This document shows positions 10,735-16,700 of a stretch of DNA of 64,000 nt, one piece after another. This stretch comes from Coraliomargarita sp. GTDB taxonomy: Bacteria; Verrucomicrobiota; Verrucomicrobiia; Opitutales; Coraliomargaritaceae. Position 1 is the first letter of the stretch, and every line of letters starts with the position of its first letter. The DNA lies in the NCBI GenBank assembly GCA_965216325.1, contig OZ244160.1, positions 96,001 to 160,000 of the forward strand. The letters are read 5' to 3'. Position numbers: made by a program.

Positions 10735-13700
10735 CGATAAGCCAGACATGCGTTTCGGCATGGAACTGCAGGACTGCGGCGAGATCTTTGCCAACTCCGA
10801 GTTCAAGGTCTTCAAGGGCACACTGGATTCCGGTGGCGCGATCAAGGCCTTCAACGCGAAGGGCCTTGCAGATCTGACCCAAGGTGAACTCCGCGGCCTC
10901 GAAGATGCCGCCAAGTCACTTGGCGCGAAGGGCCTCGCCTTCATCAAGGCTGTTGATGGCGAATGGAAGTCTCCGATCCTTAAGTTCTTCTCTGAAGAAG
11001 AGAAGGCTGCGATCAAGGAACAACTCAATGTCGAAGACGGCGACATTGTATTCTTCGCAGCAACCGAGTGGGAGCGCGCATGCACCATTCTTGGCCGTGT
11101 GCGTCTCGACGCAGCTCAGCTGCTTGTGAAGCGTGAGAAGCTAGTCATCGATCCATCCGATTACAAGTTCCTCTGGGTCATCGAATTCCCGCTCATGCTC
11201 TTTGATGAGGAGCAAAACCGCTTTGTGGCATCGCACCACCCATTCACTGCTCCGGTTGATGAGGACATTCCACTGCTCGACAGCGATCCGAAGAAGGTTC
11301 GCGGTCAGCACTACGACCTCGTGCTCAATGGTGTCGAGCTCGGTGGTGGTTCGATTCGTATCCACCAGCCGGACGTGCAGAAGAAGGTCTTCGAAGACGT
11401 GCTCAACATTGAGCCGGACGTGGTTGAAAGCCGCTTCGGTTACATGCTCAAGGCCTTCGAATACGGTGCACCTCCTCACGGTGGTATCGCCTTCGGTCTC
11501 GACCGTATGGTGACGATTCTCGGTCAGCGCACCAGTATCCGTGACGTCATCGCCTTCCCGAAGAATCAGAAGGGACAGGAAATGATGACTGCGAGCCCGG
11601 GTATCGCGACCGACAAGCAGCTCCGCGACCTCCACGTCAAGGCAGTGCTGCCGAAGAAGGACAAGGAAGCGGCGAAGGCTGCTGAGTAAGCCTCGCAAAA
11701 CGAATTACTTTTCGACTGGAACCCGGAGCCTGCTCCGGGTTTCTTTGTATACATTACTTATTTTTAATTAAGAAGAACTAGCAGCTGTTGTTTTTACTAC
11801 GAAAGTCGCGAAAGCTTCTCTAAACGTAATCTATGGTTTCGCGTTATTCGCGTCTTTCGTAGTTAATTTCAGTTTCAGTTAGATGCGCCAATTTCTACTT
11901 ATCCTCAGTCTAGCCACTGCAGTCCCAGTGATCGCCGAGAGCGAAGTGGGCAATTTCACGCCAAGTGCACCTGTGTATGATTTTCGTCTGCCACGTTTTG
12001 GAGAGAGTGGTTATACGGAATGGGTTTTGCGTGGAACTGAGGGGCATTATGACAGCCCGCAGCAGATTCGTGTGAAAGGCATGGCGCTGCGCATTTACTC
12101 AGGTGATGAGAAGATGGCGCAGGAGCTATCCATGGATAGTCCCGAAGCGACGATTCTAACTGAGAAAAACCGCGCAGTCTCGGATAGTGCGATTGAGATT
12201 ATCGGCGCGAATTTCAAGATTTCCGGATTGGGGTGGAATTGGGATGGCAACACCAAGGAGATCCGTGTGCTGGCGTATACCAAGGTCGAGTTTACGCAAA
12301 GTATCGCAGCGAGTTTAACGGAGGTGAGTCCGACAGCGCCTGAAGATGGTGGACATACTGAGATCTACAGTGAGAGCTTGGTGCTGCGCACCAGCGAGAT
12401 GGGCTATGCGTTCGAATTTACGAATGATGTGCGTGTGGTCTCTGACGAGATGGATCTAAGCAGCCAGACTTTGATTGTCTTGGCTGATGGGCCTGAGGGG
12501 CGTGATGAAAAGATGAAGGCTCCGGACGCTTCGACCACGAAGCTGGAAGCGGTGCGTCAGGTGATCGCACGTGGCGATGTAGTGATCAAGCAGGAGCAAC
12601 ATACCGTGCGTGCTGGCGAAGCTGACTTCTTCCCGCGTGAGCAGGCATCCACACTGACTGGGCTGCCGCAGGTTGAATTGCCGGGTGCATTTATTAGCGG
12701 TGCGACGATCCGCACTCGCGAGGGGCGCGTGTTGATTACCGGAGATGAGGTTGCTGGACGTGCGCAGATGATTCTGACGCAGACAGGAGGCCTGGGGATT
12801 CAAGGCGCGTCCTCATTGAGCGAGCAGACCATTGTGCTGGCTGACAAGATTTTGATGCGAGAACTGGAGGCTGAGAACAAATTCTTTTTCGAGGGCAATG
12901 TCGATGTGATGTCCGGTGCGCTCCAGCTGAAGTCGGATACGCTCACAGTTTTAGCGCGTAAGGCAGCTGAATCTGCAGGTTCGGAAGATGAATCGCTTAA
13001 GGTCGGCGAAGTGCATGATATGTTGGCTGAGGGGAGTGTGCGCATTGAGCAGGACGGCCAGATCGTGAATGCTGAAAAAGTGCGTTTCTTCCCGCTCGAA
13101 GAACGTGCACATCTGACAGGTAGCCCGACTGTATCGAATGGCGAGTCGGTGATTTCTGGGCAAAGCATTGACCTGGTGCCGGGCAAGGCGATCGTGAATG
13201 GCTCAGCGAGCGAGCGAGTCGTGGTCATTCTACCAGTGATGCCTGACTTGGGTTACAAGCCGAGTTTCATTCCATCCACGACGGAGGACACTGAAGCCTC
13301 AGAGGCGGTCGAAGAGTCCGAAACAATCGTGAAGAGCCGTATCGTTGAGATGTTGGAAGATCCGGAGAACACTCGCTTCATTTTTAAACAAGATGTGGAG
13401 GTACTTGGCACGAATTTGAAGACCACCTGTGACCGCCTCGATGTAACTGCGCGTGAAGTTGCCAGCGGCCCGGAGACTGGACAGTTGGATGTCGAAACGA
13501 TCGAAGCCATCGACAACGTCATCATCCATCAGGGCGAGCGCGTCGCTACTACCGACAAGGCGATCATCCTTCCGAAGGAGGGTAAGCTGACACTTGAAGG
13601 CAATGCAGTTGTCAAAAATCCGCAGGGCACAGTTAAGGGGCATCGCGTGACGCTCTATCAAGGCGAACGCCGAGCTGTCGTCGAGGGCGATAAGTCCCAG

Positions 13701-16700
13701 GGCGATGGTCGTGCCAAGATCACACTCCCAATGCCGGAGTAGGCGTAAAATTCGTCAGGATTGGTTTGCGATACGACTCTGCGCTGCTTTTGATTGAAAA
13801 ATATGAACGAAGCTTCAGCCCCTCCGAGAATTGAGACACGCGACTTGGTGCGCGATTTTGGCAAGCGCCGCGTGGTCAATGGTGTCAATATAAACGTAAC
13901 CGCAGGGGAAATCGTCGGCTTGCTGGGGCCCAATGGTGCCGGTAAGACCACTACATTCTACATGGTGGTTGGTCTGATTCCGGCGACGCAGGGTAAGGTC
14001 TTTCTCGATGACGATGATCTGACGCCGTTGCCGATGTATCGTCGTGCGCGCCGTGGAATCGGTTATCTGCCACAGGAAGCATCGATTTTCCGCAAGATGA
14101 CTGTGGAGCAGAACATCCGTGCTGTCGCGGAGACGTTGCCGCTGAGCAAAGCTGAACGCAAGGCCTGCATTGAAGAGCATTTGGAAGAGCTGGGGCTGAC
14201 GCACCTAGCAAAGCAAAAAGCCTACACGCTCAGTGGTGGCGAGCGCCGTCGCTTAGAGATTTCTCGTGCACTGGTGACACAGCCTAAGTTCCTGTTGATG
14301 GATGAGCCGTTTAGCGGGGTGGATCCGATCAGCGTGAGCGAAGTGCAGAAGATTATCGTGCAGCTCAAAGATCGGGGCATCGGCGTGTTGATCACTGATC
14401 ACAATGTGCGTGAAACGCTGCAGATCGTGGATCGAGCCTATTTGCTCCACCAGGGCAAGGTTCTGGCTGAGGGAAGTAGCGACTTTCTGGTTAATGATCC
14501 GCAGAGCCGCGAGTTCTATCTCGGCGAAGATTTTAATATGTAGGGCACAAATCCCCCCGTCCATTTTCTACTGACCTTCCATCATGCCCAAACAAGTAAA
14601 AAGCAAAACCACTTTTGTTGAAGCCGTCTCGGTTCGTGAGTTCTTCGAATCCTTTAAGGAGCCACTTTCGCTCGAGCTGGTCGCCGGTGAGGCAGGTTTG
14701 GATAAGACCATTCGCGAACGTAGTTTGAATCGTCCCGCCTTGGCGCTGACGGGCTATTTCCGTTATTTTGCGACCAAGCGCATCCAGCTATTTGGTGCTG
14801 GTGAAATGGCATTTCTGCGTGATTTGGACGAAGAGGAGGAGCACCGTGTGATGACGGAGATTCTGAAACGAAATGTGCCCTGTCTGGTGATTTCGCGCCA
14901 CTTGTTGCCGACGAAGATCATGAAAAAGTTGGCGGATGAGTATGGCACGCCATTGATCCGTACCTCTCTCAAGTCGAAGACGCTGATAACCGAAGCAACT
15001 TTGCTGCTGGAGGATAAATTTGCGCCTCGCACACATATGCATGGCACCTTGTTGGATGTGCGTGGTGTGGGCACCCTGATTTGCGGTGAGAGTGGGGTTG
15101 GTAAGAGTGAGTGTGCGCTGGCACTGATTGAGCGTGGCCATAGTTTGGTTGCTGACGACCTGACCTATATCAAGCGTCTGAGTGACCGCGAATTGATGGG
15201 CACATCCTCGGAGTTGAGTCGCGGATATATGGAGTGTCGTGGCCTGGGCATCATCAATATCGCAGATCTGTTTGGTGTGCGCTCGGTGCGTCTGCAAAAA
15301 CGTATCGACTTAGTGATTAACTTTATCGCATGGACCAAAGGCATGCATGAAGAGCGCACTGGCCTCGAGGGCAAAACGCTTGAGATCTTGGGCCTACCCG
15401 TTGAGATTATGGAGATCCCGGTTCGCCCCGGGCGCGATATGGCGCGCTTGGTGGAAGTGGCTTCCATGGTGCATGCACTCAAAAACATGGGGCATGATTC
15501 CGCTGCGGAATTTAACGAAAAGTTGATCGCCCATATGGGTGGGGGCAACTAGCAGTGGAGCAATACGACCAGTCATGGAAGCGCTCCTGTATGGAATAAT
15601 TGTCGTCCTCTTGCTCGGGGCTGTTGGGCTATTTGTCGCGAATAACAAGCAGAAGACTAGAATCAAAGTCTTAGAAGCGGATCGTCGCTCGCAGATCGAA
15701 CATGAGCTCAATCTACAAGATCCTGCTTCAGTCGTTGAAGAACCGGTTAAAAAAGTACCTGTCCCAACAAATGCAGGTTTCTCTAAGCCGGCGTCGAATG
15801 CCTTGTTTGCCACACTGTCTCACGAGTTGCGCACGCCCTTGAATGGGGTGCTCGGGATCTCGCAGGTGCTTAATGAAGAGCGGGATAGCGAGGACCTTAA
15901 GGTGTTGGAAGGTTGTGCGCGCCATATGTTGGCGGTGTTGCACACTCTGGTGAATTTGTCGAAGGTGCAAGCTGAGTGGGGCCAACTGCCTGAGTATCGA
16001 GAGTGGGTGAGCCTGCACGAGTTGACTGAGCAAATTAAGAAAAATCTGAGTTTTCGAGCGCGTAGCCGTGGACTCAAGATTCAGCTGGAGCATCAGGATC
16101 AGACCTTGCGCTTGCGCGGTGATAGCGACCATCTGAAAACGATTATAGAGACTGCGTTGCTGGGGTCGATCGAATGTGTGGACATGACTGACCTTCCGGA
16201 TGAAGAGCAGACTTTATTGGTGACATGGTGCACCACGAAAAAGGATGTTAAGTTAATTATTGATAACCCACTGGAGACGATGGCTCCTAATCGTGGTGAA
16301 CGGATTTCGGAGGTCGCTGAGCTGACCACTGGAGACAGCCATTCACGAATTAAAATGGAGTTTCTTTATTGGGCGGTCTCGTCTGCATTGCTGGAGTATT
16401 ACAAGGGGGCGATGTTGGCGGTGGCAATTGAACCCAGTGGCGTGCGCACCACGCTGGCCTTTGAGATGGAGCGTATGCATGCCTCACCAACCAGTGGATT
16501 ACCCGTTGGTGGCTTACGACTTCAAACTGGGGATAAGGCCCCGAAAGCCATGGTTGAGTTGCCTCAGACTTTCAAGATTCTGGTGGCAGAGGATGATCAA
16601 ATCAATCGTGGTCTGATGGGCATGTTGCTCAAGCATATGGGGCAGGATGCACATTTCGTTACGAATGGTCAGGAGGTTCTCGATAGGCTTGAGACAGAAA

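Follow-up and report, generated by a model that had tools for sequence, protein, structure and literature searches.

A single-chain LptC–LptA fusion as the likely periplasmic bridge of lipopolysaccharide export in Coraliomargaritaceae

The window analysed here, a 64,000-nucleotide stretch of a Coraliomargarita sp. genome at contig positions 96001-160000, carries a 619-aa ORF, intact from its ATG start with zero internal stops, which joins one LptC-like and three LptA-like β-jellyroll domains (D1 to D3) in a single chain (Table 1). We consider it likely that the complete periplasmic section of the Lpt bridge, between LptB2FG and LptDE, is made from this gene as one polypeptide. The E. coli bridge is non-covalent, with LptC and then LptA arranged head-to-tail; LptC is its inner-membrane-anchored first jellyroll, and LptA (or LptH), a soluble jellyroll of the periplasm, forms head-to-tail oligomers. 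In the fused protein, the short N-terminal hydrophobic segment would direct Sec export and would probably be cleaved, or possibly kept as an anchor. The LptC-like jellyroll would dock edge-to-edge onto the jellyroll that LptF/LptG of the LptB2FG ABC transporter place in the periplasm, the three covalently joined LptA-like jellyrolls would extend the same β-sheet groove, and D3 would dock onto LptD at its N-terminal jellyroll. LPS, extracted by LptB2FG with energy from ATP, would then be pushed along the continuous groove to LptDE and the outer leaflet, through all three LptA-like domains and with no further bridge subunit. Short linkers would suffice, because the N-to-C order of the chain is the head-to-tail order of the E. 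coli bridge.

Table 1. Features of the fused gene and its surroundings, in window coordinates.
Feature	Position	Strand	Basis
Terminator-like hairpin after aspS	11718..11743	+	11 pairs (7 G-C), T-rich tail; consensus match alone
Whole ORF, LptC-like and three LptA-like domains in a single chain	11883..13742	+	619 aa, Pfam/NCBIfam, AlphaFold2
Hydrophobic N-terminus, residues 1-23	11883..11951	+	sequence, AlphaFold2 helix 2-21
LptC-like β-jellyroll, residues 24-140	11952..12302	+	PF06835, TIGR04409, fold match to 6mjp_C
D1, first LptA-like β-jellyroll, residues 158-300	12354..12782	+	PF03968 25.3 bits, fold matches
D1-D2 linker, residues 301-313, charge-free, glycine-rich	12783..12821	+	conservation, pLDDT
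D2, second LptA-like β-jellyroll, residues 314-452	12822..13238	+	PF03968 37.1 bits, fold matches
D3, third LptA-like β-jellyroll, residues 480-616	13320..13730	+	PF03968 24.7 bits, fold matches
lptB, ATPase of the LPS export ABC transporter	13794..14543	+	TIGR04406 360.4 bits, cut-off 240
hprK, HPr kinase/phosphorylase	14584..15552	+	TIGR00679 357.2 bits
lptF/lptG gene, 371-aa frame, one of two in the genome	20659..21747	+	PF03739 239.6 bits

The ORF and the four domain positions given in the survey's finding were recovered. Pfam places LptC (PF06835) at residues 45-131 (36.5 bits, E 5e-9) and LptD_N (PF03968) on three stretches (82.5 bits, E 3.3e-23), located by the six-frame genome search at residues 177-278, 330-429 and 495-593, each scoring above the family cut-off of 20.4 bits. 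The NCBIfam LptC model TIGR04409 also exceeds its cut-off (41.8 bits against 38). The LptA equivalog TIGR03002 reaches 67.1 bits on the whole protein, below its cut-off of 71.7, which counts against our preferred reading. The three LptA-like units share homology: the HMM of each matches the other two with E from 1e-16 to 1e-25. Searched by sequence against the PDB, the family profile of D3 alone retrieves LptA (2r19, E 2.6e-5).

Comparison of the single domains with known structures, which the survey's finding had named as a weak point, showed that all four superpose on LptC, LptA, LptH or LptD N-terminal structures. The full-length AlphaFold2 model has a mean pLDDT of 81.0 and a pTM of 0.69, and residues 146-465 modelled alone give 80.0 and 0.74. 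The LptC-like part (residues 25-180) superposes on LptC 6mjp_C with Z 14.6 and an rmsd of 2.1 Å over 132 residues. In the 146-465 model, D1 matches LptA 7qs6 (Z 12.4, 3.1 Å over 110) and the LptD N-terminal domain (5iv9_A, Z 13.6; 7omm_A, Z 13.4). D2 matches LptH 4uu4_A (Z 15.0, 2.3 Å over 127) and LptA 2r19_A (Z 14.3, 2.5 Å over 127), and D3 matches the same two proteins (2r19_A, Z 15.0, 2.1 Å over 127; 4uu4_A, Z 15.5). Alignments to long continuous β-sheet proteins cross the domain borders at low rmsd: residues 14-307 of the model align to 7sqc_V1 (2.5 Å over 175), and residues 11-257 to the single LptD N-terminal domain of 5iv9_A. These alignments fit a continuous rod in the predicted model.

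D3 is the presumed docking end for LptD. A docking prediction of D3 with the N-terminal domain of the same genome's LptD scored 0.55, the best of three controls scoring 0.00, with at least 87% of contacts agreeing between runs and a partner pLDDT of at least 76. Of 78 solved complexes, 51 reach the mark used, as do 2 of 108 mismatched pairs; passes with a score of 0.60 or less come from only 5 of the 78 solved complexes and from all four of the mismatches that passed (of 180). The prediction thus hints at D3–LptD docking, and the pass may reflect likeness to known complexes, since pairs of the LptA/LptD type are textbook.

Residues 1-23 carry a single basic residue, then 15 apolar residues, with small residues at the end, which fits a signal peptide or else a short membrane anchor. 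Residues 2-21 are modelled as a helix with pLDDT 56-65. Outside the linkers, conservation is lowest here (pairwise identity 0.23), and an apolar stretch of 6-22 aa is present in 25 of 26 aligned family members, the remaining row beginning at the mature N-terminus. Stand-alone LptCs of the order show the same style of N-terminus. With no more than 15 apolar residues in its N-terminal segment, the 619-aa protein may lack the canonical LptC transmembrane helix; a periplasmic E. coli LptC lacking the helix works (PMC9544173).

The gene order aspS - fused ORF - lptB - hprK stands as the survey's finding had given it (TIGR04406, 360 bits; TIGR00679, 357 bits), with lptB 51 nt 3' of the fused ORF and hprK 40 nt 3' of lptB. 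A hairpin and, behind it, an AT-rich gap follow aspS, and from this sequence the fused gene probably begins a new transcription unit. hprK is a neighbour outside the Lpt machine; the lptB-hprK pairing is seen again in related loci. In 8 of 15 family loci, as here, lptB lies immediately 3' of the fused gene; the other 7 loci inspected have no lptB within ~1.4 kb downstream, so that the operon link does not hold throughout. The product of the lptF/lptG gene further along the window, at contig positions 116659-117747, presumably docks with the fused protein at the inner membrane.

The six-frame search of the genome, which covered all but stretches of 16 kb and 8 kb, gave no stand-alone lptA or lptC, in agreement with the survey's finding; a small lptA could sit in these 24 kb. 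A scan of 28,829 frames of at least 50 aa with HMMs built from the protein family's own four domains returned only the 619-aa ORF, the LptD frame (E 0.024) and a 357-aa frame (E 0.12, insignificant). The claim that the two Pfam families occur on no other gene holds for PF06835, with no match beyond the ORF in the genome search, and fails for PF03968, which also matches the N-terminus of the 726-aa LptD frame (21 bits), the expected LptD N-terminal domain.

Among Coraliomargaritaceae the four-domain chain is present in 59 of 61 genomes and in all 20 genera; the fusion is family-wide, as proposed. In the window's genome and four other family genomes, each LptA-like domain forms its own clade (SH-aLRT 94, 99 and 92). 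The claim that the fusion is specific to this family found no support. The LptC-like domain alone was matched in 111 of 121 genomes of the order, and in 19 of the 121 it lies inside a frame of at least 600 aa: five are Coraliomargaritaceae (the window's genome included) and 14 belong to four other families (f2 and f3, five each; f36 and f31, two each), whose ORFs of 706-1022 aa comprise LptC and four LptA-like domains. LptC+1 fusions occur in at least two more families, f20 and, judged by frame coordinates, f24. Beyond the class, fusions of 634-940 aa occur in Lentisphaeria/Victivallales and LptC+1 forms of 285-301 aa in three further families. Within the order sample, Coraliomargaritaceae alone had the LptC+3 form. 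The statement that other Opitutales families keep the genes split is right for most of them, where lptC-like and lptA-like genes are separate and adjacent (lptC-lptA-lptB at the corresponding place in 12 of 13 loci inspected), and wrong for the several fused families. The fusion is real and old, with other domain numbers in related groups. Public records label the fused proteins 'LptA/OstA family protein' or 'hypothetical protein', and we found no description of natural LptC-LptA fusions in the literature.

Domain number is constant within each family (LptC+3 in 5 of 5 Coraliomargaritaceae proteins; LptC+4 in 13 of 13 from f2, f3, f31 and f36), which suggests that selection acts on chain length itself. 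This constancy speaks against the chain being a mere building block, copies of which, or the chain and another jellyroll protein, would join head to tail so that the gene would set no fixed bridge length. Such assembly has a precedent, as E. coli LptA self-associates head to tail and the units per bridge are unsettled (bioRxiv 10.1101/2023.04.28.538765; PMC5575297), and in the model the first and the last jellyroll each have a free edge of the kind that pairs in such assemblies. However, the search of the genome outside the 24 kb gave no other LptA-like frame, and the N-terminal domain is LptC-like rather than LptA-like and the most conserved of the protein's domains (pairwise identity 0.49), which fits one specific partner. 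We regard the building-block arrangement as unlikely.

Somewhat less probable still is that lipid is handled by the terminal jellyrolls alone, D1, D2 or both having lost the groove and acting as spacers or binding, e.g., peptidoglycan. The low-confidence charged loops of D1 (residues 202-223) and D2 (residues 359-376) would suit such a role, with a D/E/K/R fraction of 0.44-0.45 and a length that varies across the family, as would the conserved glycine-rich linker between the two domains (pairwise identity 0.38, the other two linkers having 0.16 and 0.22; pLDDT below 50 at residues 308-312 of the full-length model). Yet D1, D2 and D3 are similarly conserved (0.35, 0.33 and 0.39, above two of the three linkers), their hydrophobic fractions are alike (0.39-0.42 for D1/D2 vs 0.35 for D3), D1 and D2 superpose on LptA/LptH with Z 12.4-15.0, and in the bridge model transport would fail at any gap in the groove.

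The cargo of the single-chain bridge would be LPS. Lpt homologues have been proposed to move surface lipoproteins in Borrelia (bioRxiv 10.1101/2022.12.21.521298), to contribute to the export of surface lipoproteins in Bacteroides (bioRxiv 10.64898/2026.10.02.756314) and to have a substrate other than LPS in Treponema pallidum (PMC8407342). A cargo such as lipoproteins or a different glycolipid, in place of LPS or alongside it, is nevertheless very improbable here: the genome encodes LpxC (322.9 bits), WaaA (184.6 bits), the LptD barrel (48 bits) and LptE (40.2 bits), so the cell makes lipid A-Kdo and has a classical LptDE translocon. With two LptF/G (239.6 and 221.2 bits), the other Lpt parts listed by the survey's finding are all there. 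An assembly or annotation artefact, with two to four genes joined by a sequencing error, has nothing in its favour and can be dismissed, since uninterrupted frames of 612-696 aa span the whole query in independent genomes of all 20 genera and many public metagenome proteins of 595-695 aa share the architecture.

Compared with known systems, residues 24-140 resemble LptC in passing curated cut-offs and in their superposition, and the position just 5' of lptB recalls lptCAB loci. Unlike LptC, they are no protein of their own and belong to the first 140 residues of a 619-aa chain, whose N-terminal hydrophobic segment is short, signal-peptide-like and ~10 residues before the first strand. D1 to D3 resemble LptA/LptH (PF03968/TIGR03002; Z 12.4-15.5), and D2, D3 and the last domains of other fused forms share one side of a split with 12 of 14 stand-alone LptAs (SH-aLRT 93); unlike LptA/LptH, the three copies are covalently linked to each other and to LptC, and each unit has an extra charged loop. 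An E. coli LptC-LptA fusion engineered for in vitro reconstitution has the identical domain order; it is man-made with one LptA (PMC12065857), whereas the present chain is natural, has three LptA-like units and is conserved across a family. Other Verrucomicrobiota (sensu GTDB) LptC-LptA(n) fusions are of the same chain type, often at the same site 5' of lptB, and differ in domain number. Tandem domains in one chain also occur in MCE-domain lipid transporters: MlaD has one MCE domain, PqiB three and LetB seven. In these periplasm-spanning lipid conduits, too, the number of tandem repeats within one polypeptide sets the length, but they are unrelated in fold and assembly, forming a tunnel of hexameric rings as opposed to the single open β-groove predicted here. 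The bridge of fixed length stated by the survey's finding is an inference. In the fused form, the number of LptA units per bridge would be written in the gene.

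Profile searches place one LptC-type and three LptA-type domains within a single open reading frame (ATG start, 619 codons, no interruption). The LptC family PF06835 matches residues 45-131 with 36.5 bits against a cut-off of 21, and the NCBIfam LptC model TIGR04409 reaches 41.8 bits against a cut-off of 38. PF03968 (LptD_N, the family of LptA and of the LptD N-terminus) scores 82.5 bits in total over three stretches; a six-frame search placed them at residues 177-278, 330-429 and 495-593 (25.3, 37.1 and 24.7 bits, respectively; cut-off 20.4), exactly the intervals of the survey's finding. 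TIGR03002, the NCBIfam one-to-one LptA equivalog, gives 67.1 bits on the whole protein, under its cut-off of 71.7, and we therefore term the three units LptA-like domains (D1, D2 and D3; residues 158-300, 314-452 and 480-616) and not canonical LptA. Nor is any of them a free single-domain soluble LptA, since all share one 619-aa frame with the LptC-like domain (residues 24-140). An assignment to LptD is rejected: LptD has a C-terminal 26-strand outer-membrane barrel (PF04453), which the fused frame lacks, and the sole PF04453 match of the genome lies in a 726-aa frame elsewhere. Taken singly, the domains belong to the LptC and LptA/LptD_N fold families and are unremarkable; it is the architecture that is unusual.

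A full-length AlphaFold2 model built from 26 sequences of the family Coraliomargaritaceae (mean pLDDT 81.0, pTM 0.69) consists of an N-terminal helix (residues 2-21) and four β-blocks (31-137, 159-299, 315-450 and 481-614). A Foldseek search of this 619-residue model against the PDB returned LptD chains at the top, but with TM-scores of 0.1-0.2 over long, blurred alignments, and unrelated β-propeller proteins were also among the matches. We therefore compared the models with ~48,000 representative solved chains using an aligner that reports residue ranges, and folded the inner domains apart (residues 146-465, 15 orthologues, pLDDT 80.0, pTM 0.74) because D1 and D2 were not assessable from the full-length comparison. 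In the full-length model, LptC 6mjp_C aligns with residues 25-180 (Z 14.6, rmsd 2.1 Å over 132 residues) and LptC 6mit_C with the LptC-like part including its N-terminal helix (Z 15.8, rmsd 7.7 Å over 165), while residues 452-617, holding D3, superpose on LptA 2r19_A (Z 15.0, rmsd 2.1 Å over 127) and LptH 4uu4_A (Z 15.5). In the model of the inner domains, D2 superposes on LptH 4uu4_A (Z 15.0, rmsd 2.3 Å over 127) and LptA 2r19_A (Z 14.3), and D1 on LptA 7qs6 (Z 12.4). All four domains thus superpose on solved folds, which closes a gap left by the survey, where single domains had not been compared with LptA or LptC structures. Some low-rmsd alignments cross domain borders, their partners being LptD, with its one long jellyroll, and proteins with a long continuous β-sheet; together with the pTM values they portray the protein, as modelled, as one continuous rod.

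The three LptA-like domains are homologous to one another, the HMM built from each matching the other two (E 1e-16 to 1e-25). By pairwise BLAST, D1 and D2 are the closest pair (30% identity, E 1e-16), D2 and D3 sharing 21% (E 3.5e-6). Mean pairwise identity across the family is highest in the LptC-like domain (0.49) and amounts to 0.35, 0.33 and 0.39 in D1, D2 and D3, respectively; conservation is far lower (0.16-0.22) in the two charged insert loops and in all linkers but one. Judged from these sequences, D1 and D2 are under the same kind of constraint as D3, which speaks against their being mere spacers. The glycine-rich, charge-free D1-D2 linker (identity 0.38) is conserved like the domains yet modelled with low confidence, and may serve for bending or for contact with a partner.

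A quick-search tree of 85 single domains (148 columns, low resolution) shows D1, D2 and D3 each as one clade over the genome studied here and four others of the family (SH-aLRT 94, 99 and 92, respectively). The chain of one LptC-like and three LptA-like domains (LptC+3) is therefore older than the split among these members, at the least. A split with SH-aLRT 93 unites D2, D3 and the last domains of the fusions of three further families (f2, f3 and f36) with 12 of 14 stand-alone LptAs, and D1 groups with the third domain of chains with four LptA-like units (LptC+4; SH-aLRT 89). The tree pairs D2 with D3 (SH-aLRT 88), contrary to the BLAST comparison; given this conflict and the low resolution, we make no claim on the order of duplication, or on a single origin of the long fusions found in five families.

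The consensus scan detected no terminator-like site on the coding strand between the fused gene, lptB and hprK, and on this ground the three genes probably form one transcription unit. A frame with HisKA and receiver domains, in which HATPase_c was not detected, overlaps the end of hprK. Across the family, lptB adjoins the fused gene downstream in 8 of 15 loci; in seven (L011-L017), aspS still precedes the fused gene and no lptB lies within ~1.4 kb downstream, so the link to lptB is broken in part of the family. The adjacency of lptB and hprK recurs in loci L008-L010, L018-L022, L035, L038-L040, L043-L045, L073, L075 and L076. The relatives that share it with this genome include some from other classes of the phylum, and it is much older than the LptC-LptA fusion.

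Location of the fused gene, its neighbours and other loci discussed (window positions unless a genome or locus is named)
Feature	Position	Remarks
aspS		upstream of the fused gene
Terminator-like hairpin, then AT-rich gap	11718-11743	after aspS; consensus scan
Fused LptC/LptA-like gene	11883..13742 (+)	619 aa
D1-D2 linker	12783-12821	residues 301-313
lptB		51 nt 3' of the fused gene; TIGR04406, 360 bits
hprK		40 nt 3' of lptB; TIGR00679, 357 bits
lptB-hprK pair	13794-15552	
HisKA/receiver frame	15539-16963	474 aa
LptF/G gene	20659-21747	one of two; inside the window
LpxC match	G000:C1:2607347-2608153	same genome, outside the window
DUF4838 / NAGLU_N-like protein after LptC+4 gene	L041:5795-8419; L042:5826-8441	family f31; ~870 aa
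TPR-LptD protein	L069:2451-5747	genome G190; 1099 aa
LptC+1 fusion with separate LptA-like gene	L073:2239-3606	genome G341, family f64

The genome is a single contig of 3.06 Mb, of which the window spans positions 96001-160000; the survey's window coordinates for the fused gene are correct. The searches covered the whole contig except 24 kb in two stretches, positions 1352001-1368000 and 2792001-2800000. Within the searched sequence, PF06835 matches the fused frame alone, PF03968 matches, besides the fused frame, just the N-terminal end of the 726-aa LptD frame, and a six-frame scan of 28,829 frames with the family's domain HMMs found no further significant LptA- or LptC-like frame. The LptD barrel, LptE, two LptF/G, LpxC and the Kdo transferase WaaA are present, so that all Lpt parts except separate LptA and LptC were found in the searched sequence. 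Because LpxC, WaaA and these Lpt parts are encoded, the bacterium very probably makes LPS. The LpxC match lies in a 447-aa frame, far longer than the 268 positions of the LpxC profile, and LpxC may there be fused to a second, neighbouring function.

In the usual LptC, one transmembrane helix at the N-terminus serves as the anchor and slots in between LptF and LptG; the fused protein offers only 15 apolar residues. These lie with one arginine in residues 1-23, which end in small residues resembling a signal-peptidase site; an apolar stretch of 6-22 residues is found in 25 of 26 aligned family members, the remaining row beginning at the mature N-terminus. The segment is poorly conserved, directly ahead of a conserved mature start, and helix 2-21 is modelled at pLDDT 56-65. 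It seems closer to a cleavable signal peptide than to the usual LptC transmembrane helix. Since stand-alone LptCs of relatives with separate lptC and lptA genes share this type of N-terminus, it is a trait of the order and not of the fusion. An E. coli LptC rendered periplasmic by a cleavable signal is reported to be still functional (PMC9544173), and for Borrelia a lipoprotein form of LptC is predicted (bioRxiv 10.1101/2022.12.21.521298); by analogy, function is plausible whether the N-terminus is cleaved or kept.

Queried with the whole protein, 59 of 61 Coraliomargaritaceae genomes gave a match (20/20 genera; 48 of the 49 high-quality genomes), nearly end to end where the contig permits, with open frames of 612-696 aa and a few cut at contig ends. 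There was no match in G028 (99% complete; 8 kb of sequence uncovered) and G049 (89% complete). Many proteins of this kind, 595-695 aa long, are found in public collections; those with names are entered as 'LptA/OstA family protein' or 'LptA' and come from Coraliomargarita, Thalassobacterium and Lentimonas. An artefact of assembly or annotation is ruled out by the intact frames in every genus together with these public proteins.

The fusion had been described in the survey as specific to Coraliomargaritaceae (f1), which is refuted by long fusions in families f2, f3, f36 and f31. The LptC-like domain alone, used as query on an order sample of 121 genomes from 41 families, matched in 111. The frame holding the match was ≤271 aa in 85 genomes from most families, 284-427 aa in 7 (f20, 3; f24, 2; f6 and f17, 1 each), and at least 600 aa in 19 (f1, 5 with the genome studied here; f2 and f3, 5 each; f36 and f31, 2 each). 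The 13 long genes fetched from outside f1 are all single ORFs of 706-1022 aa with an LptC+4 architecture according to f1-derived HMMs; Pfam places LptD_N above cut-off in 12 of them (not L050) and LptC in 6. Directly 3' of the LptC+4 gene lies lptB in f2 (5/5) and f36 (2/2), not in f3 or f31; at two f31 loci a DUF4838 / NAGLU_N-like protein follows instead. Shorter fusions also occur: the LptC+1 form is seen in two genes from f20 (303 and 389 aa), and in two f24 genomes LptC-like and LptA-like matches fall, judging from match coordinates, in one frame of 360-361 aa.

Beyond the class, the LptC Pfam model, run across the phylum, matched 94 of 251 genomes. We scanned 13 ORFs taken from long-frame and neighbouring loci: six (f52) join LptC to 2-3 LptD_N stretches in 634-940 aa, three (f53, f57, f64) are LptC+1 fusions of 285-301 aa, and the remainder comprise one TPR-LptD protein and separate LptC-like or LptA-like genes. 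The TPR-LptD protein (L069), considered as a fusion and rejected, carries N-terminal TPR repeats, LptD_N and the LptD barrel, and is best described as an LptD that has gained a TPR module in the periplasm. About a dozen frames of 734-813 aa, matched near profile positions 80-163, may be LptD N-termini and were left out of the fusion count. Locus L073 has an intermediate arrangement, with a fused and a free LptA-like unit: downstream of an LptC+1 fusion of 285 aa come an LptA-like gene of its own (168 aa), lptB and hprK. Source names place the f52-type proteins in Lentisphaeria/Victivallales. A homologue search with a two-domain fusion returned close relatives only, one of which, a relative of the f53 protein, is labelled Kiritimatiellia. 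An exhaustive search of representatives gave length classes of ~300-340, 590-680 and 700-880 aa. A lead from the Atlas suggests ~300-aa LptC+LptD_N fusions as a candidate common architecture in Omnitrophota.

The survey's observation stands, and its interpretation is supported in part: with the lineage specificity set aside, we consider it likely that the fused protein is a single-chain LptC-LptA3 periplasmic bridge. Two preprints (bioRxiv 10.1101/2023.04.28.538765; 10.1101/2022.12.21.521298) describe the proposed edge-to-edge pairing of LptC, LptA and LptD in the E. coli bridge, and since the N-to-C order of the fused chain is that pairing order, we read it as the bridge made covalent. The LptC-like end would sit on LptF/G, D1, D2 and D3 would form the span, and D3 would sit on the N-terminal jellyroll of LptD. 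For this last contact, a docking prediction of D3 with the LptD N-terminal domain of this genome reached 0.55 (best of 3 controls, 0.00), a weak band for a textbook pair: in the calibration, no more than 5 of the 78 solved complexes lay in the range up to 0.60, and so did every one of the 4 mismatches that passed out of 180, so that such a score is more often wrong than right unless the pair is likely beforehand. Covalent linkage is compatible with transport, since an engineered E. coli LptC-LptA fusion is reported to work in a reconstituted system (PMC12065857). The E. coli models place the membranes 185, 220, 260, 290 and 325 Å apart, centre to centre, for one to five LptA (bioRxiv 10.1101/2023.04.28.538765); transferred to the fusions, this scale would give ~185 Å for LptC+1, ~260 Å for LptC+3 and ~290 Å for LptC+4.

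A bolder reading, which we regard as rather improbable, is that the number of fused jellyrolls is a genetically encoded ruler of the envelope and the bridge a permanent covalent rod, not a dynamic LptA oligomer. Were the ruler true, lineages with LptC+1, LptC+3 and LptC+4 chains would differ correspondingly in the distance from inner to outer membrane, by ~35 Å per unit on the E. coli scale, the gene itself would tell how many LptA units make a bridge, a number that cryo-electron tomography could verify, and the natural single chains would be the best material for a structure of the complete trans-envelope Lpt machine.

A full-text literature search, with most subscription journals outside its scope and prior mention therefore possible, did not find LptC-LptA fusions in nature, or LptA domains in tandem, described anywhere. 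The surveys read of Lpt genes, whether in Verrucomicrobia or bacteria at large, either count LptA and LptC as two genes or leave them out of the analysis (PMC10542722, PMC3422733, PMC8871954). For the fused proteins, databases offer no more than the labels 'LptA/OstA family protein' or 'hypothetical', owing to which their genomes seem to be without lptC, and the present analysis corrects this annotation. The engineered fusion was made, as its authors state, because LptA oligomerisation hampers reconstitution (PMC12065857); a covalent bridge avoids this problem and could help structural work on the complete machine. In E. coli it is unsettled how many LptA bridge the periplasm and if they form a lasting structure or one assembled on demand; one preprint states that the number per bridge is not established and may be up to five (bioRxiv 10.1101/2023.04.28.538765). 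A natural chain that joins LptC to a set number of LptA-like units would have the stoichiometry of its bridge encoded by the gene itself. The fusion is of moderate interest alone and of more interest as part of a natural series: lineages with one, three or four LptA-like units can be set against envelope width, and so bear on the stoichiometry and length of the bridge.
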